Positions 6,551 to 61,621 of a DNA stretch of 64,000 nucleotides are shown one piece after another (position 1 is the stretch's first letter; every line of letters starts with the position of its first letter). The notes under the pieces were generated by a model, which saw only the letters and a list, made by a program, of their open reading frames with translations, had not been told where the DNA came from and made no database searches. Both the position numbers and the translations under genes were made by a program. This DNA is from an uncultured bacterium. Lineage in GTDB: Bacteria; Auribacterota; UBA3054; JAPLST01. The stretch lies in assembly GCA_964397565.1 (NCBI GenBank), contig CAYNJC010000025.1, positions 84-64,083 on the forward strand. Direction: 5' to 3'.

Positions 6551-7162
6551 ATGCTGCTGGTCATTGTGGCATATTTGTGCGGCGCGATTCCGGGCGGCTA
6601 TTTGCTGAACCGCCTGCTGTGGCAGCCGTTGACGCCGCGCATGGCGCGCGCGCTGGCCGGCCGACGCGGCGCCGCACTGTTTCTGCGCGTGGCGCCGCGC
6701 GCTTTGTCGGTCATGGCGGATTTCTGCATCGGTGCGCTGGTCACATGGGCCTTGGCGAATCTGGCAGCGCACTTGCGTGGCACGCGCTGGGAATGGACCA
6801 TCCATCCGCTGGTTTCCGACGGCCTGGTCCATGGCGCAACCCTGATCGCGCTGGTCGTCGGGCATGCCCTGTCCGTCTATATTTGCGGCTGGGGCGGCAA
6901 AGGCATTGCCATGGCGCTGGGCGGTTTCATGATCTTGACGCCGATCCCCAGCCTGGTCGCCATCGGCGTCTTTTGCCTGACCACCGGCGTCACGCGACGC
7001 ATCGGGTTGGGCGGTGTGGCCGGCACGCTGGCCTTGCCCCTGGCGATCTGGTATATGGATCATTCCGCGCTGGTCTACATCGCGGTGGCCGGCTTGCTGT
7101 GTTGCTACACCGTGTTGGTACATGCCGTTGATTTTTTGCCCGGCCACCATGACCAGGCCTAG
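6551..7162 (+). CDS. plsY: Glycerol-3-phosphate acyltransferase PlsY
   Basis: N-terminal YLCGAIPGGYLL and GGKGIAMALGG motifs in a small multi-TM protein. Confidence 0.8.
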   Translation: MLLVIVAYLCGAIPGGYLLNRLLWQPLTPRMARALAGRRGAALFLRVAPRALSVMADFCIGALVTWALANLAAHLRGTRWEWTIHPLVSDGLVHGATLIALVVGHALSVYICGWGGKGIAMALGGFMILTPIPSLVAIGVFCLTTGVTRRIGLGGVAGTLALPLAIWYMDHSALVYIAVAGLLCCYTVLVHAVDFLPGHHDQA

Positions 7163-7658
7163 TCACAGCGTGCGCGTGGCCGTGCAAAATCGCCAGCGGG
7201 CGTGCCCGGTAGACTGCGCGGCCGTGCGCGCCCTGGCCCTGTTTGTCTTGGCGCACGAAGGCCGGCCGGCCAGCGCCGGCGCGACCGTGCGCTTGGTCAG
7301 TGACGCCGCCATGATCGCCTTCAACACCCGCTATTTTGGCAAAACCACACCGACGGATGTCATCAGTTTCCCGGACGCAACGACACCCGGCCACGACGCT
7401 ACCGGCGCGTATGTCGGCGACGTGCTCGTGTCGGTCGAACAAGCCCGGCGGTATGCCCAGGCCCATGCGCTCGCGCCGGACGTCGAGCTGGCCCGCTACG
7501 TGATTCACGGCCTGTTGCATTGTCTGGGCTACGACGATCTAGAACCGCGCGCGCGCCGCCGCATGCTGCCGCGCCAGGAAGCCTTGCTGCGCGCATGGCG
7601 GCGCCAGCCGGCCTGCAGGCCGCTCCTCAAAACGCCTGCAATTAAAGCTCCCCTATAG
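7149..7658 (+). CDS. ybeY: rRNA maturation endoribonuclease YbeY
   Basis: HGLLHCLGYDD zinc-binding motif. Internal ATG at 7149 chosen because the longer ORF (7014) runs through plsY in another frame. Confidence 0.85.
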   Translation: MTRPSHSVRVAVQNRQRACPVDCAAVRALALFVLAHEGRPASAGATVRLVSDAAMIAFNTRYFGKTTPTDVISFPDATTPGHDATGAYVGDVLVSVEQARRYAQAHALAPDVELARYVIHGLLHCLGYDDLEPRARRRMLPRQEALLRAWRRQPACRPLLKTPAIKAPL

Positions 7659-53248: not shown

Positions 53249-53662
53249 TTATCGTCGTTTCTTCACCGTGCTGCGTGGCTGGCGGCGTGGATGATACTCG
53301 CCCGGACCATCGGCGGCAATAGACGCGGCTGGCACGCCGACAGGATACACCGACACACCTTCCCGACGCGCGACCATGAGGAGCGGCTGCCACGCTTGCT
53401 CCGCATATTGCCGCACGCCAACGCCAATGGGTTCGATGCGCGTGTCCACGCGCCAGACCATGTGCCACAGCGTGTCCAACGCAGCTTCACGGTCCTTGCC
53501 GTCGAACGCAGGCGAAACCACCACCAGATCAATATCGCTTTCCGGCCGCTGGCATCCGCGCGCACACGAACCGAAGATGACGCCCCGGTCAACCACAATG
53601 CCGGCTTCCGCGACTTTCGCCAGATACTTCCGCACCACGCTCACAATTGCATCATCAACCAT
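53249..53662 (-). CDS. Nucleotidyltransferase-domain protein (MNT-type antitoxin candidate)
   Basis: VIFGSCARGCQRPESDIDLVVVS matches the GSxxRG ... DxD minimal nucleotidyltransferase motif. Confidence 0.8.
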   Translation of the reverse strand: MVDDAIVSVVRKYLAKVAEAGIVVDRGVIFGSCARGCQRPESDIDLVVVSPAFDGKDREAALDTLWHMVWRVDTRIEPIGVGVRQYAEQAWQPLLMVARREGVSVYPVGVPAASIAADGPGEYHPRRQPRSTVKKRR

Positions 53663-54036
53663 CTGAAAACCTCCTTCGCCCTCTTCACGCGCGCCTGTGC
53701 CGAACGAATTGGCACCGGTTGATTCTTTTCGTCAGGATAACGTCCCGCAATATTGAAGCGACCGGTTTCGCCCAGAACGTCTCGCATCCCGGCACTAATC
53801 GTCAGTCCGCTCAGTTCAGCCAAGCGGGTGAGCGAATGGATCTTGGGCGCAACGTCCTTTGTGGCGCGCGTCACATGCGCCTTGAGGACTTTTTCAAGCG
53901 CCAGATGGATGAAGAACAAGCCCTGACGCCCGTGCCCGCTGCGCACCAGCACTTCGCCGCTCGCCAAATCCTCAACGGCGTTGGCGCGCCAGTACCCGAC
54001 CTGCCGCTCAATGTCTTGTGCGCTTATCATATACAT
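53641..54036 (-). CDS. HEPN-domain protein (toxin candidate)
   Basis: HEPN-like helices (FFIHLALEKVLKAHV ... NIAGRYPDE). Overlaps the downstream MNT gene by 22 nt. Confidence 0.7.
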   Translation of the reverse strand: MYMISAQDIERQVGYWRANAVEDLASGEVLVRSGHGRQGLFFIHLALEKVLKAHVTRATKDVAPKIHSLTRLAELSGLTISAGMRDVLGETGRFNIAGRYPDEKNQPVPIRSAQARVKRAKEVFRWLMMQL

Positions 54037-54747: not shown

Positions 54748-55938
54748 TCAACGACGCACACAACGGAAGCCAATACCTTCGTCCGCGCCGTCCGGCGTGT
54801 AGTAGCTGCGGGACGCCACGCGGCAGCGGTTCGAGCTGTAGGCCCAACCGCCGCCGCGCAGCACGCGGTCCGAGCCAGAAGAAGGTCCGCATGTGTCATT
54901 TTGCGTCGCACCCGTATTACTGTACCAACTTGCATCATACCGGTCCCAACACCATTCCCAGACATTGCCGGCCATGTCGTATAAGCCATAGCCATTCGGC
55001 GCGAAATAGCCGACCGGACTGGTGTAGGGCATTGGTTCGTTGGTAAACGCCGGATTGTAGCCGTTCGGACCTAAGTCGTATGCGTAAGCTGTATTACCAT
55101 AATAATTCGCGCGCGAATTCGTGATCGCATTCGCATCGCTCCACGGGAAGCGCATGCCAACCGCGCCGCCGCGCGCCGCTTTCTCCCATTCGGCCTCGGT
55201 CGGCAGGCGATAGCCGTTGGCACTCCAGTTCACCCATTCGTTCGACAGATTTGCTGACCCGCCGCGGTACACCAGGGTCTGGGCCGCATTGGTATAATAG
55301 CATGGCGTCAGGCCTTCTTTCTCACTGCGCGCATTGCACCACTTGACACAGTTGTACCAGTTCACCATCTGCACTGGGTGATTCGGCACTTTGCCAGCGC
55401 CGGGATTTGTAAACGCGTAGCCGTTGTTCGTGGCCCAGATATACACATCCTGCCACTGCTGCGACGTCACCTCGTGTTTGTCCATGAAAAAGGCGCTGAG
55501 GGTCACGGTATGATTCGGTTGTGCAGACGTTCCGTCGTCGGTGAAGTTCGTGCCCATCTGAAACGGGCCGGCCGGGATCAGCGCCATATCATCCATGGCC
55601 GTCACGCGCACGCGGGCCGTGACACCGCTGGCCTCCGGCAGATCGCCCGCCGCAAACCAGACGACCTGCTTATTCGTGCCGGTCGTGACGGTCGCGCCAA
55701 CCGCGCCGCTGAAATTCGTGCAGGCCAATGAATACGTTGCGCCGGCGTTGGTGGAGACATTGATTGCAACCGTATGGATACCACCGCTCGGATTCAGCAG
55801 ATCATAGGCAATGTCCACAATCGCCGCGCCTATCCGTTGGGCGGCCGTGACATTCGTGACCGTCACCGGCCCGGCTACGGCGGTGAACGCGCCCAGCGCA
55901 AGGGACAGAATGATGGCGGTGATTGGTGTTGATTTCAT
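54748..55938 (-). CDS. Secreted FGE-sulfatase (SUMF1/EgtB/PvdO-type) domain protein
   Basis: Signal peptide and an Ig-like N-terminal module, followed by MALIPAGPFQMG ... GYRLPTEAEWEKAARGG ... GNVWEWCWD ... RVLRGGGW. Confidence 0.88.
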   Translation of the reverse strand: MKSTPITAIILSLALGAFTAVAGPVTVTNVTAAQRIGAAIVDIAYDLLNPSGGIHTVAINVSTNAGATYSLACTNFSGAVGATVTTGTNKQVVWFAAGDLPEASGVTARVRVTAMDDMALIPAGPFQMGTNFTDDGTSAQPNHTVTLSAFFMDKHEVTSQQWQDVYIWATNNGYAFTNPGAGKVPNHPVQMVNWYNCVKWCNARSEKEGLTPCYYTNAAQTLVYRGGSANLSNEWVNWSANGYRLPTEAEWEKAARGGAVGMRFPWSDANAITNSRANYYGNTAYAYDLGPNGYNPAFTNEPMPYTSPVGYFAPNGYGLYDMAGNVWEWCWDRYDASWYSNTGATQNDTCGPSSGSDRVLRGGGWAYSSNRCRVASRSYYTPDGADEGIGFRCVRR

Positions 55939-56028: not shown

Positions 56029-56202
56029 TCACTTGCGCCGCAGCAACAGCCAGAGCGGCAGCGCGGCGGCCAGAATCAGCGCCGGTTCCGGCACGGTCGT
56101 GTCCAGCGTAAAATCCGGCGATTCGGCCTGGCCCCAATCGGCCAGACAGGGCAAGGTCCAGATTACCAGAATCGCCAGCAGAATCATTAGTTTTGTGTGC
56201 AT
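56029..56202 (-). CDS. Minimal PEP-CTERM protein (57 aa)
   Basis: GGAG 7 nt upstream of the ATG. MHTKLMILLAILVIWTLPCLA signal peptide, a 15-aa middle part (DWGQAESPDFTLDTT), then VPEP-ALILAAALPLWLLL-RRK. Confidence 0.65.
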   Translation of the reverse strand: MHTKLMILLAILVIWTLPCLADWGQAESPDFTLDTTVPEPALILAAALPLWLLLRRK

Positions 56203-56292: not shown

Positions 56293-57522
56293 TCACTGCG
56301 GCGTGTCCGCCAGCCAGTGGTGGAGCGTATGCTTGCTGCGCGCGCGCGGCGTCAGTGTCGTGGCGCCGCGCCATAAGTTGAAGACCGTGCGCCCATAGCG
56401 TGCCAGCAACGTCATCAGGCGAACAGGATAGTAGAGGTACAGCACGGGCGAGGTCGCACGTACGCCATAGAGCCGCGCGAGGACTGCCTTGGGTACGCAG
56501 ACGTTGTGCACGAACAGCGAGATTTTCTTGTGCCACACGGCATCGTGCCACGCCACCACATTGGGCGACAGCGCCGCGTCCGCGGTCACATCCGTGAGGA
56601 TTTGTGTCCGGGCGCAGAACAGCACGGGGTCTGGCAAAGAATCTGGGCGCAGCTCGCGCAGAACCTGCGCAGGCACGGCGGCGCCAACCATGTCGTGCGC
56701 CAGTTGCAGCGCCAGAAAGACACCGCGCGTCCAGCGCCACGCCCGCGCGCGCGCCACCACATCCGGCCACGCCAGGCTCTCGTGCTGCCATCGTATGATC
56801 TGCGCAATATCACAGAACGGGCGCAAACCAAACTCGAATTCGTGCTGATAAGCCGCATGGAAACAGGCATAGAGCAGGAGATCCTCGGCGCACAAGCCCA
56901 GGACGCTGTTATCGCCGATGCGCACCGGCACGGCACGCTGCCACAGGTCACCGGGTTCAATCGAATAGACGTGCCGCGGCGCAGTGATGTTCCAGTGCAG
57001 CTCGATCGTGGTGCGGCCTTGCTGCGCGAAGGGCGGCAGATGCAAGTTGCCGTCGAAGAACGCCTGGTCGAGCACATACGGGAACTGCGCCGCGTAGCCG
57101 TGGCGCTCCAGAACGTGCGCGACGCGCGCCAGGTTGCCGCGTGGCACCAGCAGATCAATATCCACCATTTGCCGCGCGCCGAGGTCGTCATAGACGCCAA
57201 AGGCAAGATGTGCGCCTTTGAGCAGCACGACCGGCTGATGGTCGGCGTGGAGCGCGGCCGCGATGTCGTGCAGCTCATTGCGGATGCGAAGATTGCGCAC
57301 CGCGTTTGATGCGTAGAACGTCTGCAACGTGTGCAGGGCGTCACGGGCCGGCGGCCCCGTGATGCCGAGCGCCTTGATGCGCTGGTACACAAGGCCGACC
57401 ACTTGCTGCGCCAGCGCGTCGTGCAGCAGCGCCTGCCACTCGTTTGCTTGCAGGGCTGCCAGGTGCGCGGCCGTCGCACGCTCATTGCCCGGACGCAGGC
57501 AGTCGAGCAGCAGCTCGGTCAT
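56293..57522 (-). CDS. Nucleotidyltransferase family protein (PF14907/NTP_transf_5-like)
   Basis: MVDIDLLVPRG motif, size and context. The ATG at 57522 forms an ATGA overlap with the upstream gene. Confidence 0.55.
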   Translation of the reverse strand: MTELLLDCLRPGNERATAAHLAALQANEWQALLHDALAQQVVGLVYQRIKALGITGPPARDALHTLQTFYASNAVRNLRIRNELHDIAAALHADHQPVVLLKGAHLAFGVYDDLGARQMVDIDLLVPRGNLARVAHVLERHGYAAQFPYVLDQAFFDGNLHLPPFAQQGRTTIELHWNITAPRHVYSIEPGDLWQRAVPVRIGDNSVLGLCAEDLLLYACFHAAYQHEFEFGLRPFCDIAQIIRWQHESLAWPDVVARARAWRWTRGVFLALQLAHDMVGAAVPAQVLRELRPDSLPDPVLFCARTQILTDVTADAALSPNVVAWHDAVWHKKISLFVHNVCVPKAVLARLYGVRATSPVLYLYYPVRLMTLLARYGRTVFNLWRGATTLTPRARSKHTLHHWLADTPQ

Positions 57523-58490
57523 GACAAGCACTTCCGCATGGGGATGCGCCGGCGGCCGTAGTGCTCGACGTCGGCGGCCAGCTCTGCTGCGAGTGCCGCG
57601 ATGGTCACGCGTTCGAAGCCAAGTTTCTCATAGAGGGCGCGGGCGGGACAATTGTCCTCGAAGACGGTCAAGAGCAGCTCCTGGGCGCCGGCAGCCGTGG
57701 CTTGGTCAATCACGTGGCGGACCAATTCTGCGCCAATGCCCATGCCGCGATAGCGTGTTCTGACGGTCAGACTGTAGAGCCAATGGCCGACCCGCGGGGT
57801 ATCGCCGGCGGGGTGCCGCATCAGCCGGACGAAGCCCAGCAACTCTGTGCCGCGCGTGGCGACGTAGTTGGTCAGGCCTGGCGGAGCAGTCGGCGCGGCG
57901 GCGGGCAGGTCACGCGCGGCGGACAGATCGAGCCATGCGGCCACGCGAACAAGCTCCGCGGGCGTGGCTTCTCGGATGACGAAGGTGGGGCGGCAGCGAT
58001 GCAGCAGTGCGCGCAATAATGGGCTGCGCTGCAGGCGCCCGAGCGCGCGGCCGCTGGCGTGCCGCAGCCATCTCGTCAGCGCGCACAGCCACGCGATCAG
58101 CGGTGCACAGCATGTGCAGACCAGGCCGGCGAACCACCAAGCGCCGCGGTCGAGTGTGCGGCTGCGCCCGGCGTGGGTGGCGTGCGTCACCGTGCCGAGC
58201 AGGTCGCGCGGCGCGAGCGGCCCCGCGCGGTGAGTCTGCGCGTCACCGCGCAGCCAGACGCCCTCGCCACGCACACGCACCACGCGATGGACCACGTACC
58301 GTGCGGGCGCGGACTCGGCCAGCACAATGTCGCCCCGCGCCGGCGCAGCACACTGGGGCGCCAGCTCGATGACATCACCGTCGTGAATGATCGGCCACAT
58401 GCTGTTGCCGTTGACCGTCATGCGCACGCATTGCCCGCGTGCCAGCGCCGCGCGGATGACCGGCATCATGGCATGGCCGGGGATCGTCAT
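57519..58490 (-). CDS. S24/S26-type (signal-peptidase-like) peptidase - TM - GNAT acetyltransferase fusion
   Basis: GNSMWP nucleophile motif, HRVVRV where bacterial SPase I has KR, then LRGD. A hydrophobic segment WWFAGLVCTCCAPLIAWLCAL. GNAT motif A YRGMGIGAELVRHVIDQA ... ALYEKLGFE. ATGA overlap with the kinase gene. Confidence 0.6.
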   Translation of the reverse strand: MTIPGHAMMPVIRAALARGQCVRMTVNGNSMWPIIHDGDVIELAPQCAAPARGDIVLAESAPARYVVHRVVRVRGEGVWLRGDAQTHRAGPLAPRDLLGTVTHATHAGRSRTLDRGAWWFAGLVCTCCAPLIAWLCALTRWLRHASGRALGRLQRSPLLRALLHRCRPTFVIREATPAELVRVAAWLDLSAARDLPAAAPTAPPGLTNYVATRGTELLGFVRLMRHPAGDTPRVGHWLYSLTVRTRYRGMGIGAELVRHVIDQATAAGAQELLLTVFEDNCPARALYEKLGFERVTIAALAAELAADVEHYGRRRIPMRKCLS

Positions 58491-59389
58491 AGCGCCGCAC
58501 GCACGAGCGGAATGACGGCCTTCTCCGCGCGGCAGCGCAGGCGGAAGACGGGCGTGCGCGCCAAAATCGTGTTGAGATTGGTCAGCGCGCGTTGCAGCAG
58601 CGGCGCATCCCAATACGGCAGAAATGTGCGCGCCAGCAGCAGCGGCGCGGCCGCCGTCGGTGCGAGTTGTTCGATCCGGTTCTCCGGCGCTTGTTCCAGC
58701 AGAATGATGGCACGCAGTGGCGCGGCATGATTGCGGGCAATATTGGCCGTGCCACCCCAGGGCGTGCCGTAGCACATGGCGGTGTGTGCGTTGACGCGTA
58801 CGGCGATGCGGTCGTCGTTCATGGCGATCACGCCCGGCTCCTGGGTCCACAGGCACGCGTGTGTGCTCTTGCCGGCGCCGGAATGCCCGACGAAGACAAG
58901 GCCCTGGCCGTGGTCGTCAATGCCGGACGCGTGAAAAACCAGACCATCGGTGAAGAGCACGGCGGTGCGCAGCAGCAGTTCGCCCGCGCCGATGTTAAGG
59001 ACGCTCTGCCACGTCGTGCCGTGCGGTCGCCCGGCCGGGACGCTGCGCTGTTCGGTCAGCGTCAGATCGTTCCACGCGGCATTGGCGCGCAGGACGCTGT
59101 GCATCTGCGCCGGCTGCTTGTCATCATGATACGTAATCGCGGCGTAGAACTCGGCGCCGTCGCGATACATGCGCCAGATCGAGCCCGGGTCGTACACCAA
59201 GGTGCCGCGCGGCTCGGGCGTGTCCGCGCTTTCCTCCCAGTGCAGCACGACGCGCGCCAGCGGCTGTGGCGTCAGGCCGAAGAATGGGCCGAGGCGTTGT
59301 TCGATCCCCAATTCGGCGGCGGACAGCGGGCTGTGCAGCTCGATCACAATGTCGGCGATCGAAATCGGTATGTTATGTTGGTTGGCCAT
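58487..59389 (-). CDS. HPr kinase/phosphorylase-related kinase
   Basis: P-loop LVFVGHSGAGKSTHACLW followed by NDD, as in the HprK C-terminal domain. Start is ATG at 59389 or TTG at 59413, and both overlap the 3' end of the rSAM gene. Confidence 0.7.
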   Translation of the reverse strand: MANQHNIPISIADIVIELHSPLSAAELGIEQRLGPFFGLTPQPLARVVLHWEESADTPEPRGTLVYDPGSIWRMYRDGAEFYAAITYHDDKQPAQMHSVLRANAAWNDLTLTEQRSVPAGRPHGTTWQSVLNIGAGELLLRTAVLFTDGLVFHASGIDDHGQGLVFVGHSGAGKSTHACLWTQEPGVIAMNDDRIAVRVNAHTAMCYGTPWGGTANIARNHAAPLRAIILLEQAPENRIEQLAPTAAAPLLLARTFLPYWDAPLLQRALTNLNTILARTPVFRLRCRAEKAVIPLVRAAL

Positions 59390-60443
59390 GCTGTTCCTTG
59401 CGCGCCCAGGCAACTTCGCACAGATACGGCACCGGTTCGTTCAACGTATGCGTCTCGAGCAACGACCAAGCCGGGCAGCGCGGGCAGTAGACGCGCGCGC
59501 CGCAGTTCCGGCAGGCATCAGCCAGCGGCGGTGCCGTGTCAACATAGCGCTGCGTCTGTTCCCATGCCGCGCGAAAGCCAACCTCCAGCGGGCGCGCGGC
59601 CGGCAGCGGCAAGTCCATGCAGACGTTCATCTCCCCGCGCGGATTGATGACAAACGAAGCCGCGCCAGCCTGACAGTGGAAATTGCGATCATGGGCCGGC
59701 GCGACTGCGTGCCGCGCCGTTTCAGTCCACCCTCTGGCCGAGATTTGGTCGGTCGCTTCGAGTGCGACACATGCGGACGGTGACAGGCGGCAGTGCTCCA
59801 CCTCGGAACACGCGCCATCGCGGCGCTGGGACAGCAGCCAGCCGCCCGAGAACGGCACACCCCAGTTGCGCGCCATCTGCCGCATTGCATCCAGTTCGCC
59901 CACGTTTTGCCGCGTGACCGTCGTCTTGAGCCCGAGCGGCACACGCCGCCGCACGAGCGCCTCAATCCCGGCGCAGCAGCGCGCGTAACTGCCGGCGACA
60001 CCGGTGATCGCCTCGTAGGTCGCCGTAGTGGCGCCGTAGAGCGTGATCTCCGTCCGGCTCGGCGGCGCTTCCGCCAGGCGTTGCGCCAGCGCCTCGCTGA
60101 CCAACGTCCCATTGCTGAACAGCGTCAGCAGCAGACCCATTCTGGTCAGCGGCGTGTAAATCTCAAAAAAATCGGGCCGCAGGAGAACTTCGCCGCCCGT
60201 CAGCAGCAGAAAGAGCATGCCCTCGTCAACGGCCGCGCGCGCCAGTGTCAGCCATGCCGCCGCCGTCAGCTCCTCCGCGCGCACCGTGGCGTCGCCGCCA
60301 GATTGGCTGATGTAGCACATGCGGCAGGCCAAGTTGCAGCGCGCCGTGAGTTCAAAGGTGCCATTGACGGGCTGGCGGCGCGCGGCGGCGCGCGCGTGCA
60401 GTTCACGCACCAGATCGCCATACTCGCACGGCAGGCTGCTCAT
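59373..60443 (-). CDS. Radical SAM/SPASM domain peptide-modifying enzyme
   Basis: CNLACRMC (CX3CX2C) near the N-terminus. C-terminal SPASM cysteines (CQAG ... NVC ... CRNCGARVYCPRC). ATGA overlap with the PqqD-like gene. Confidence 0.85.
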   Translation of the reverse strand: MSSLPCEYGDLVRELHARAAARRQPVNGTFELTARCNLACRMCYISQSGGDATVRAEELTAAAWLTLARAAVDEGMLFLLLTGGEVLLRPDFFEIYTPLTRMGLLLTLFSNGTLVSEALAQRLAEAPPSRTEITLYGATTATYEAITGVAGSYARCCAGIEALVRRRVPLGLKTTVTRQNVGELDAMRQMARNWGVPFSGGWLLSQRRDGACSEVEHCRLSPSACVALEATDQISARGWTETARHAVAPAHDRNFHCQAGAASFVINPRGEMNVCMDLPLPAARPLEVGFRAAWEQTQRYVDTAPPLADACRNCGARVYCPRCPAWSLLETHTLNEPVPYLCEVAWARKEQHGQPT

Positions 60444-60706
60444 CCGTCAACCATGCCCAGCGGCGCGATCTCATCGAGAAAGGTTTGCACATCGGCGCGG
60501 GCGCGCACCGGCTCGACGGCAAACCGTTCGACCACGATGGCTGTCAGTTCATCCAGCGTGCGCTCTTCTGCCAGCAGCTCCCACACACAGCAGGCCGTGT
60601 CGTTTAGGATCACCAAGCCATTCATCTCCATAACCTGGGCGCCCAGCGGCGTCAGCAGAGCGACGCCTCCAACATTCTGTAGCATGAATTTCTCACTGCG
60701 TTTCAT
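60440..60706 (-). CDS. PqqD-family protein (RiPP recognition element candidate)
   Basis: 88 aa. NDTACCVWELLAEERTLDELTAIVVERFAVEPVRARADVQTFLDEI is a typical PqqD-like pattern. The ATG at 60706 lies just downstream of the attenuator. Confidence 0.8.
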   Translation of the reverse strand: MKRSEKFMLQNVGGVALLTPLGAQVMEMNGLVILNDTACCVWELLAEERTLDELTAIVVERFAVEPVRARADVQTFLDEIAPLGMVDG

Positions 60707-60751: not shown

Positions 60752-60794
60752 AAATAAAAAAGCTGGCCTGCATCCTTTTCACGGTGCGGCCAGC
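60752..60794 (-). terminator. Intrinsic terminator/attenuator between the precursor and maturase genes
   Basis: Minus-strand GCTGGCCGCA ... TGCAGGCCAGC stem (one bulge) followed by TTTTTTATTT. Confidence 0.6.
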
Positions 60795-60923: not shown

Positions 60924-61088
60924 TTACGAGCCACTCGGCCCGTTTGAGCATGTCCTCGGGTCGGTCTTCAAACAGCCCAGCAATCTCTCCTCCAGCTTAA
61001 GCGGGACAAAGGTTGCCTTGGGCGCCTCATAGGGCTGCTTGTGCGATGCCTGCGCCGCAGTGGTCACGGTGATGTGCTGCTTTTCCAT
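60924..61088 (-). CDS. Candidate precursor peptide (54 aa), not in the ORF track
   Basis: GGAGAG-ttagc-ATG. Sequence MEKQHITVTTAAQASHKQPYEAPKATFVPLKLEERLLGCLKTDPRTCSNGPSGS*. Lies directly upstream of PqqD and the rSAM gene on the same strand, with a consensus promoter at 61146-61174. Confidence 0.7.
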   Translation of the reverse strand: MEKQHITVTTAAQASHKQPYEAPKATFVPLKLEERLLGCLKTDPRTCSNGPSGS

Positions 61089-61145
61089 GCTAACTCTCCA
61101 TACCGTTGAATAACCAGCAATTTTCTTGTAAAAATACTTTTGTTA

Positions 61146-61174
61146 AGTATACCAAGAACGGCCACTTTTGTCAA
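61146..61174 (-). promoter_or_regulatory. Sigma70-type promoter TTGACA-N17-TATACT (peptide operon)
   Basis: On the minus strand: ttgaca (61174-61169), exact 17-nt spacer, tatact (61151-61146). About 55 nt of 5' UTR before the peptide ATG. Confidence 0.65.
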
Positions 61175-61219: not shown

Positions 61220-61248
61220 TTGCAAAATCAGCCGGGCTATGGTATACT
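61220..61248 (+). promoter_or_regulatory. Sigma70-type promoter TTGCAA-N17-TATACT (ssrA)
   Basis: ttgcaa at 61220-61225 and tatact at 61243-61248. About 18 nt upstream of the mature tmRNA 5' end. Confidence 0.65.
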
Positions 61249-61266: not shown

Positions 61267-61621
61267 GGGGGCGCACTGGGTTCGACTGGAGTCGATGCTG
61301 TACCGTGGCGTGCCGCGGACGTCCGTTGGCCGCGTTACCAATCGGGCACAAACAACAAACGCGAACGAAGAACTCGCACTTGCTGCGTAATTTAACGTAG
61401 CCGCTCGGTCGTCGTGCTGCCTGTCAGGGCGACATGAGCGACGATTACAGGCTGGCGCGGATGATCGGCTGGGAGCCATCCGCGTGAGACACTTCCCGGC
61501 TCGACCGGCGGTGGCCTGCTGATGGGCAACCAATGGTTTAAACTCAATCCACCAGCTACGCGCGTAGAAGCGGTACGGATAGATGTTCAGGACGCGGGTT
61601 CAACTCCCGCCGCCTCCACCA
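61267..61621 (+). ncRNA. ssrA: Transfer-messenger RNA
   Basis: The 5' GGGGGCG pairs with the 3' CGCCUCC (G3-U wobble) followed by ACCA. T-arm GGACGCGGGTTCAACTCCCGCC. Tag reading frame at 61346-61390: gca caa aca aca aac gcg aac gaa gaa ctc gca ctt gct gcg taa, encoding AQTTNANEELALAA*. Confidence 0.92.

Follow-up and report, generated by a model that had tools for sequence, protein, structure and literature searches.

A small gene and its operon

The present analysis concerns a small open reading frame (ORF), and the gene cluster that it precedes, in contig CAYNJC010000025.1 (GenBank assembly GCA_964397565.1) of an uncultured bacterium from the GTDB phylum Auribacterota. The whole stretch analysed, 64,000 nucleotides in length, is referred to as the window, and all coordinates are given along it unless stated otherwise. 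A preliminary description, prepared from the letters of the window, had singled out this ORF as a putative precursor of a RiPP, a peptide synthesized on the ribosome and then modified post-translationally. Present in a single copy in the 64-kb window, it occupies positions 60924..61088 of the minus strand and, as had been claimed, runs from ATG to TAA (61088..60924) and encodes 54 amino acids followed by the stop (MEKQHITVTTAAQASHKQPYEAPKATFVPLKLEERLLGCLKTDPRTCSNGPSGS). The Shine-Dalgarno sequence GGAGAG (61094..61099, minus strand), separated from the ATG by a 5-nt spacer, and a sigma-70-type promoter, TTGACA-N17-TATACT with a TG extension (61146..61174, minus strand; a match at 11 of 12 positions), from which the peptide operon would be transcribed, were likewise located as stated there. 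In the 1.4-kb region scanned, two promoter-like sites were observed, against 0.5 expected from shuffled sequences. The notion that the ORF is unannotated holds only in part: it is absent from the track of ORFs of 60 amino acids or more, but the gene calls of NCBI, JGI, ENA and Logan do list exactly this peptide, without a name. In public records, an exact look-up gave neither a name nor an accession for the peptide or for the radical SAM and ScmC-family proteins encoded downstream.

The ORF had also been placed immediately 5' of a PqqD-like gene, which is not accurate, as a spacer of 217 nt separates it from pqqD (60706..60440). The gene calls of identical public contigs, which we compared with our own translation, give on the minus strand the order peptide, PqqD, radical S-adenosylmethionine (SAM)/SPASM protein, ScmC-family protein, S24-GNAT fusion and NTP_transf_5 protein. 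The PqqD-family protein (60440..60706; 88 amino acids; PF05402, E = 1e-12) is the predicted leader-binding RiPP recognition element (RRE), and the radical SAM/SPASM protein (59373..60443; 356 amino acids; PF04055) is a putative peptide maturase. The ScmC-family P-loop protein (58487..59389; 300 amino acids), assigned to PF27840 in precomputed annotations, has a predicted HPr-kinase-like fold. The S24/S26-like peptidase-GNAT fusion (57519..58490; 323 amino acids; PF00717 and PF00583) is a candidate leader peptidase and acetylase, and the NTP_transf_5 nucleotidyltransferase (56293..57522; 409 amino acids; PF14907, E = 5.5e-63) a candidate extender of a phosphorylated serine. Each of the four genes 3' of pqqD overlaps the gene before it by 4 or 17 nt, the overlap between pqqD and the radical SAM gene being 4 nt. 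The gene order is identical in independent contigs. The closest independent relative, a metagenome-assembled genome (MAG) from Lake Pavin (loci L005 and L008 of the set described below), has the same six genes followed by different neighbours, and because these neighbours differ beyond the NTP_transf_5 gene, we set the boundary of the cluster after it.

The 217-nt spacer between the peptide gene and pqqD has a folding z-score of -4.06 relative to shuffled sequence. At 60752..60794 (minus strand) it includes a GC-rich hairpin with UUUUUUAUUU after it. This element was detected by RNA folding and by comparison with L008; a terminator scan with default settings gave no result in the window, as the loop of the hairpin is larger than the scan allows. 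In L008, the promoter (TTGACA-N17-TATGAT with TG, i.e. the same architecture), the Shine-Dalgarno sequence GGAGA and the hairpin are all kept amid intergenic DNA that has diverged, and a comparable hairpin with a T-run is found in L010, L032, L040, L042 and L050. The hairpin and the UUUUUUAUUU that follows it probably constitute a partial terminator that sets the ratio of precursor to enzymes.

Conservation of the peptide gene across phyla

Related loci were fetched via the radical SAM enzyme only (the best 80 of 319 relatives, in one-genome-per-species contigs), and their six-frame ORFs were scanned with a hidden Markov model (HMM) of the peptide. Fifty-four of these loci encode a radical SAM protein at least 49% identical to that of the window; 47 of the 54 contain one to three peptide homologues on the same strand, which sit just 5' of the PqqD and radical SAM genes with few exceptions. 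Five further loci have a divergent Y-E-x-P peptide recognized by inspection, and two are without upstream sequence. A small ORF at the equivalent position near homologous PqqD and radical SAM genes, which the preliminary description had suggested looking for, is present in all 52 radical SAM-anchored loci that could be tested. A PqqD gene was found in nearly all related loci. The hosts of the peptide comprise Pseudomonadota, Chloroflexota, Planctomycetota, Acidobacteriota, Nitrospirota, Chlorobium, Armatimonadota (Chthonomonas), candidate phyla and archaea. A direct search yielded 10 close homologues with 47-87% identity, and from 1.84 billion representative proteins, searched with a profile, we retrieved 291 clusters (50% identity) at E <= 1e-3; in all of the best 150 of these 291, the representative is 38-95 amino acids long. 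No Pfam or NCBIfam model matches the peptide or 9-10 diverse relatives, even at E <= 10.

The variation among these homologues is that of a protein-coding sequence. Residues of the leader that are invariant at the protein level are specified by several synonymous codons (four each for Thr and Leu, three each for Val, Pro and Arg), and the core differs from that of L008 by an in-frame 3-nt indel. Some loci carry tandem peptide genes with identical leaders and unlike cores, three each in L011, L035 and L050 and two each in L006, L032, L045, L052 and L055. A homologous peptide is also encoded, between the radical SAM and ScmC genes, in a distant group of loci (Anaerocolumna, other Firmicutes and some Acidobacteriota) with radical SAM proteins 33-42% identical to that of the window. 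Judged by these comparisons, the ORF is a conserved protein-coding gene, syntenic with those for PqqD and the radical SAM/SPASM protein across bacterial phyla and archaea. The distant-group loci are L063, L066-L070 and L075 (~7010..7490), and L071, L076, L080 and L082; their peptides have three to four Cys and mostly end in Ser, e.g. MKEYIKPTIEIVELRPEERLATCHIGLSGPDPLTYIWEMIFCRKSRCKLGYTSAGGCS.

A near-invariant leader block before a hypervariable core

RiPP precursors are usually recognized by the combination of a conserved leader with a core that is hypervariable or repeated and with tandem paralogues, and YxxP is a known RRE-binding leader element of lasso peptide systems. The preliminary description had proposed a leader of this kind in the N-terminal part of the peptide and a core with two Cys and a terminal Ser behind it, and the family alignment bears out this division. 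A variable N-terminus is followed by a near-invariant block of 18 residues (Y-E-x-P-K-A-T-F-V-P-L-K-L-E-E-R-L-L; amino acids 20-37, YEAPKATFVPLKLEERLL, 60978..61031, minus strand), which is the predicted recognition sequence for PqqD and the enzymes, and then by a hypervariable core. The invariant alignment columns of the close family are Y20, P23 and A25-L37, and Y-x-x-P is kept even where the radical SAM protein is only 33-42% identical. The predicted core of the window peptide (amino acids 39-54, CLKTDPRTCSNGPSGS, 60927..60974, minus strand), with a leader/core boundary that we infer, fits the grammar of the family, which reads small residue-Cys-x-Lys, 5-9 residues, Cys, 4-11 residues, Ser.

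Core statistics were compiled from those 136 of the best 150 representatives that have an E-E-R-L-L-type motif. A Cys follows two residues after this motif in 121 of the 136, C-x-K (Lys at +4) is present in 98 and exactly two Cys are present in 111, while a terminal Ser closes 107 of these otherwise hypervariable tails. Most distant relatives also end in Ser. In the close family, Cys39 of the window peptide is invariant and Cys47 nearly so. In the radical SAM-anchored set, G, S, A or T stands before the first Cys in 35 of 47, the spacing between the two Cys is mostly 5-9 residues and the tail past the last Cys mostly 4-11; the remaining core positions are hypervariable. A C-X3-D/E motif of the ranthipeptide type, which can be read in the window core as CLKTD, was considered and rejected, as it is not kept in close homologues.

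Several sub-types of the core stand apart. One sub-family is a fixed product, unlike the hypervariable Ser-ending type: L025, L029, L041, L043, L057 and L059, from lineages unrelated to one another (Aminicenantes, Syntrophobacteraceae, Acidobacteriota, a Eubacteriales MAG and an archaeon), share the near-identical core G-C-N-F-S-T-I-Q-V-C-G-L-T-E (CNFSTIQVCGLTE) in peptides encoded upstream of the radical SAM gene, and have no kinase. Cores with a PCGC end occur in Methylococcaceae and Lamprocystis. In Chromatiaceae and Acidobacteriaceae, a Y-E-x-P leader precedes cores built of GN[Y/F]PSxNSPC[G/D]DC repeat units (L021 5309..5545; L023 4921..5466; L026 5305..5649; L038 5156..5443), a layout that points to modification of each repeat by the radical SAM enzyme. 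In the Chlorobium loci (L039 11631..11858; L046 11704..11910), the peptide gene lies at the far end of the operon, past an ATP-binding cassette (ABC) exporter and NTP_transf_5, and the peptide, in which there is one Cys only, is strongly Arg-rich in its core (…CGRRRMRRNMMRGRRRRPNVVPVGKMS).

The PqqD and radical SAM proteins

The best NCBIfam matches of the PqqD protein are PqqD chaperones of the lasso type, with scores below the cut-offs. The radical SAM protein has the cluster motif C36-x3-C40-x2-C43 and, towards the C-terminus, Cys residues with the spacing of a SPASM domain (C257...G270-x4-C275, C311-x2-C314-x5-C320-x2-C323, C342); the CxxxCxxC motif and all seven SPASM-spaced positions are invariant in the family. 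A profile search of the PDB gave SkfB (1.7e-16), PqqE, BlsE, YydG and SuiB as the best solved relatives, and with the exception of BlsE, all of these are peptide maturases. The radical SAM protein is strongly conserved, with 65-86% identity across phyla. Its family exceeds 1,700 proteins at E <= 1e-10 from Pseudomonadota, Chloroflexota, Planctomycetota, Acidobacteriota, Chlorobium, Armatimonadota, Firmicutes and archaea, which at present carry no annotation beyond "radical SAM protein" or "hypothetical protein".

Accessory genes that covary with the core

The ScmC-family protein was modelled with AlphaFold2 at a predicted local distance difference test (pLDDT) score of 90, and a Foldseek search with the model retrieved HprK/P catalytic domains and PEPCK with a probability of 1.0 and template modelling (TM) scores of 0.5-0.59 per target. 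Its P-loop, G-x-x-G-x-G-K, is invariant. HPr-kinase homologues of the paeninodin and pseudomycoidin clusters phosphorylate the C-terminal Ser of the precursor, and the pseudomycoidin nucleotidyltransferase puts a hexose on the Ser phosphate (PMC8498205); many lasso clusters of Firmicutes contain an HPr kinase and PqqD together with an "uncharacterized nucleotidyltransferase" (PMC7533575). In the open-access literature, HPr-kinase-type tailoring of RiPPs was found mentioned in lasso contexts only. From the modelled fold, the ScmC-family protein is the predicted kinase for the C-terminal Ser of the peptide. The peptidase domain encoded next to it resembles, by its conserved residues, Ser/His-type signal peptidases: across 43 loci, the Ser (in G-x-S-M-x-P) is present in 40, and at the non-gap positions the His is found in 40 of 40 and the Asp in 41 of 41.

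The distribution of these genes was compared with the peptide sequences in loci with enough downstream sequence (Fisher test, shared ancestry uncorrected). All peptides of a locus end in Ser in 21 of 24 loci with the ScmC gene versus 2 of 17 without it (p = 2e-6, not corrected for ancestry), and C-x-K is present in 26 of 32 peptides from loci with ScmC versus 1 of 19 from loci without it (p = 1e-7, likewise uncorrected). ScmC and the S24 peptidase occur together in 26 of 26 loci, joined by NTP_transf_5 in 14 of them and by the GNAT fusion in four, while 19 loci consist of peptide, PqqD and radical SAM genes alone among unrelated neighbours. We regard these three genes as the core module of the system. 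The terminal Ser of the window peptide, noted in the preliminary description, is one of a series kept at the end of hypervariable tails, those of the distant Firmicutes included, and without selection this would be difficult to account for. Seven close relatives and most of the Firmicutes group have an ABC exporter within the cluster.

Genes around the cluster

Directly 3' of the cluster lies a gene for a secreted FGE-sulfatase-domain protein (54748..55938, minus strand; PF03781, E = 7.7e-56), preceded by a 57-aa ORF (56029..56202, minus strand; MHTKLMILLAILVIWTLPCLADWGQAESPDFTLDTTVPEPALILAAALPLWLLLRRK) for which L001 and L002 have a gene call and which is missing from the cluster of the closest relative. 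Both were rejected as cluster members, as the genes after NTP_transf_5 differ in L005/L008; the FGE-sulfatase protein, not kept beside the cluster there, is probably unrelated to it. An FGE-domain match also lies upstream of the radical SAM gene in L027. With its signal peptide, ~20 residues, VPEP, a hydrophobic stretch and RRK, the 57-aa product looks, by eye, like a miniature PEP-CTERM protein. Further along the minus strand, the Pfam table of L001 gives a HEPN protein (53641..54036) and then an overlapping NTP_transf_2 minimal nucleotidyltransferase (~53249..53662), which from their domains look like a pair of the toxin-antitoxin type. On the other side of the peptide gene, a transfer-messenger RNA (tmRNA) gene (61267..61621, plus strand; Rfam RF00023, 167 bits; tag ANEELALAA) is divergent from the peptide operon; the second promoter-like site (61220..61248, plus strand) lies 5' of it, back to back with the peptide promoter and with ~45 nt between the two. 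Past the high-coordinate end of the window, L001 (2873..5901) contains a second, unrelated radical SAM gene (426 amino acids) beside genes that encode a TPR protein and a membrane protein with DsbD_2/Fer4_5 domains; the distance to the peptide gene, across the tmRNA gene, is ~4 kb.

A proposed pathway and its alternatives

The ORF very probably encodes a genuine RiPP precursor, processed by the neighbouring PqqD/radical SAM system. This agrees with the interpretation given in the preliminary description, which gains support from the comparative evidence, namely the synteny, the partition into leader and core, the YxxP element, the Cys pair and the terminal Ser. The likely product, as far as the sequences can tell, would be a Cys-crosslinked peptide modified at its C-terminal Ser. 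In the pathway that we propose, the strong promoter would transcribe the whole operon, and the hairpin and U-run after the peptide gene would probably attenuate read-through into the enzyme genes, so that precursor transcripts would outnumber those for the enzymes. The stand-alone PqqD would bind the 18-residue leader block and present the core to the radical SAM/SPASM enzyme, for which the most likely reaction, though at a little less than an even chance, would be the formation of intramolecular Cys thioether cross-links (of the sacti- or ranthipeptide type) in the two-Cys core. By analogy with paeninodin and pseudomycoidin, on which the kinase and nucleotidyltransferase steps are modelled, the HPr-kinase-fold ScmC protein would phosphorylate the C-terminal Ser, and NTP_transf_5 might, as we tentatively suggest, attach a glycosyl or nucleotidyl group to the Ser phosphate. 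The S24/S26-like Ser/His peptidase stands an even chance of being the enzyme that cuts off the leader between a small residue (G38) and Cys39; the fused GNAT could conceivably acetylate the product, either on the N-terminus thus exposed or on the conserved Lys41, which is a more speculative step. The accessory enzymes would thus act on those features of the peptide that covary with the accessory module.

A number of observations weigh against this interpretation or parts of it. The chemistry of the radical SAM enzyme cannot be read from sequence, and it is for this reason that the thioether is put no higher; the similarity of the enzyme to SkfB is modest, and its AlphaFold2 model, built from a 16-sequence alignment, reached a pLDDT of only 51 and was unfit for a fold search. 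As for the ScmC protein, a phmmer search of the PDB gave one match, to the P-loop of an adenylate kinase with E = 1, the TM scores of the Foldseek matches are moderate, and the protein scores 35.3 bits against a cut-off of 200 for TIGR04352 and 16.7 against 200 for TIGR04355, both HprK-related families. The covariation statistics ignore shared ancestry, and there are exceptions in both directions, with a kinase but a non-Ser end in L013, L020 and L048 and a Ser end without a kinase in L027 and L034. The S24 peptidase is not a universal leader peptidase of the family, because of the 19 loci with only peptide, PqqD and radical SAM genes. The hairpin with its T-run is not universal across loci either, and because it is recurrent yet not universal, we treat it as a local feature rather than as a hallmark of the family. 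Finally, no exporter or immunity gene was found within 10 kb of the window's copy.

The peptide may be a RiPP precursor on which the radical SAM enzyme makes a C-C or ether cross-link (for example at the Lys of C-x-K), an epimer or, by oxidation of Cys, a formylglycine, the Cys pair then forming a disulfide. SPASM relatives with similar E-values do form C-C bonds (PqqE, SuiB), epimerise (YydG) or catalyse other reactions, the sole full-length NCBIfam alignment is to the mycofactocin maturase, the Lys at +4 is kept in 98 of the 136 cores and some family members have one Cys or none. We nevertheless consider this rather unlikely, since the Cys at +2 and the second Cys are the most conserved features of the core and the best solved relative, SkfB, is a thioether synthase; among the characterised SPASM maturases, moreover, those that use a PqqD-type RRE and modify Cys-rich cores are known as thioether formers. 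The co-occurrence of a terminal Ser and Cys with a kinase-like gene, together with the end -C-S of several distant members, could instead mean that the kinase phosphorylates Ser for elimination to dehydroalanine, as do class III/IV lanthipeptide kinases, with addition of a Cys giving a lanthionine-type ring and no phosphate in the final product. This is improbable, as searches with Pfam and NCBIfam showed neither a lyase nor a cyclase domain in the operon, the tail past the last Cys varies between 4 and 11 residues, and the presence of NTP_transf_5 alongside the kinase in 14 of 26 loci fits a retained and decorated phosphate, as in pseudomycoidin. A similarly low probability attaches to a precursor of an intracellular cofactor or a redox or signalling molecule, comparable to pyrroloquinoline quinone (PQQ) or mycofactocin, instead of a secreted product. 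Neither the surroundings of the window's copy nor the minimal three-gene loci contain an exporter, immunity gene or dedicated protease, and the radical SAM protein is unusually conserved (65-86% identity across phyla) and similar over its full length to the mycofactocin maturase; however, hypervariable cores and unlike tandem paralogues are the opposite of the invariant modified residues of cofactor precursors, and ABC exporters do lie inside the cluster in ~16 related loci.

Modification of the invariant 18-residue block itself, with the variable Cys tail serving as a follower or a recognition-neutral appendage, is very improbable. The block is indeed conserved far beyond a typical leader and stays invariant between wholly diverged flanks, but it holds Y-x-x-P, a known RRE-binding leader element of lasso systems, and the scaffold of the tail (Cys, Lys, Cys, terminal Ser) is conserved and covaries with the tailoring genes. 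The YxxP leader, the affinity of the PqqD protein to lasso B1 chaperones, the terminal Ser of the peptide and the HPr-kinase-like and nucleotidyltransferase genes, typical of lasso clusters of Firmicutes, might also suggest a lasso-peptide precursor. This reading is effectively refuted: a radical SAM/SPASM enzyme holds the conserved position instead, and neither an Asn-synthetase-like lasso cyclase nor a transglutaminase-like B2 protease was found within 10 kb on either side (Pfam table of L001) or in the related loci inspected (L005 and L006 among them); in place of the B2 protease there is an S24-like peptidase. Least credible of all, with practically no probability left to it, is the idea that the ORF arose by chance or that the 5' region of the pqqD operon holds a non-coding or regulatory element here. 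The ORF is short and matches nothing in Pfam or NCBIfam, but the comparative data refute this explanation: the homologues in 291 clusters, the conservation of amino acids through synonymous codon change and the in-frame indel in the core place the ORF beyond chance, and Rfam has no family overlapping it.

Implications and comparison with known systems

The peptide family, for which we favour the RiPP-precursor interpretation, is widespread and as yet undescribed, lying outside the models of Pfam and NCBIfam and outside the searchable papers. The joining of a radical SAM enzyme with a serine-kinase and nucleotidyltransferase set so far reported only for lasso peptides is likewise new to the searchable literature. 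We put forward, with considerable reserve, the view that the family represents a widespread RiPP class in which a lasso-like toolkit (YxxP, PqqD, HPr-kinase fold, NTP_transf_5) has been recombined with a radical SAM/SPASM enzyme replacing the cyclase, and whose products are cross-linked two-Cys peptides with a phospho-(glycosyl/nucleotidyl)-Ser. If the precursor prediction holds, a substrate would be defined for a large and very well conserved family of radical SAM/SPASM proteins. On the wider view of a RiPP class, a phospho-(glycosyl or nucleotidyl)-Ser C-terminus would be unreported for radical SAM RiPPs, and a cross-link at the conserved C-x-K might be new chemistry; the family would also show where to seek the unidentified precursors of related cassettes of the SynChlorMet type. 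The kinase and nucleotidyltransferase module for the C-terminal Ser appears to be a tailoring cassette portable between RiPP classes. The clean grammar of the precursor (a fixed 18-residue leader, C-x-K...C...S) makes its prediction directly testable, three genes (peptide, PqqD and radical SAM) being expected to suffice for modification of the core, and an invariant leader over hypervariable cores would suit a scaffold for leader-guided peptide engineering.

Three known systems invite comparison. With the SynChlorMet (Scm) cassette of TIGRFAMs/NCBIfam (ScmC, ScmD, ScmE and ScmF), the cluster shares a PqqD relative, a radical SAM/SPASM protein and a ScmC-family protein (PF27840), and ScmC, ScmE and ScmF are among its NCBIfam matches; it differs in having one radical SAM gene instead of two. 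Membership in this cassette was rejected on the scores (24.6 bits against a cut-off of 125 for ScmC, 81.6 against 400 for ScmE and 78 against 400 for ScmF), and the Chlorobium relatives likewise fail the Scm cut-offs. The description of the Scm family reportedly names no precursor. The open-access literature yielded no paper on the SynChlorMet cassette, nor on ScmC together with a radical SAM protein. The lasso systems of paeninodin (PadeK) and pseudomycoidin (PsmK-PsmN) share with the cluster a precursor ending in Ser, an HPr-kinase-fold enzyme, a nucleotidyltransferase, a stand-alone PqqD and a YxxP leader, whereas the lasso cyclase and B2 protein are lacking here and the class-defining enzyme is a radical SAM/SPASM protein. 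The kinase-like protein also differs from PadeK-type kinases in belonging to the ScmC family (PF27840) and falling far under the cut-offs of HprK_rel_A/B.

The third comparison is with sacti- and ranthipeptides (subtilosin/AlbA, SKF/SkfB, thermocellin/CteB, freyrasin/PapB and SCIFF), which likewise combine a radical SAM/SPASM maturase and a PqqD-type RRE with a Cys-containing core behind a conserved leader; the minimal form of the cluster, in addition, resembles SCIFF in being a free-standing unit of peptide and enzyme without a protease or exporter. Here, in contrast, the RRE is a separate protein and not the N-terminal domain of the radical SAM enzyme, the precursor family lies outside the curated models, the scaffold of the core, C-x-K...C, contains no more than two Cys, and approximately half of the loci add the HPr-kinase-like protein, the S24 peptidase and often NTP_transf_5, a set for which no report in this class was found in the open-access literature. 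On the sequence evidence, the system would work most like those of the sacti- and ranthipeptides, and a thioether would be the likeliest cross-link.

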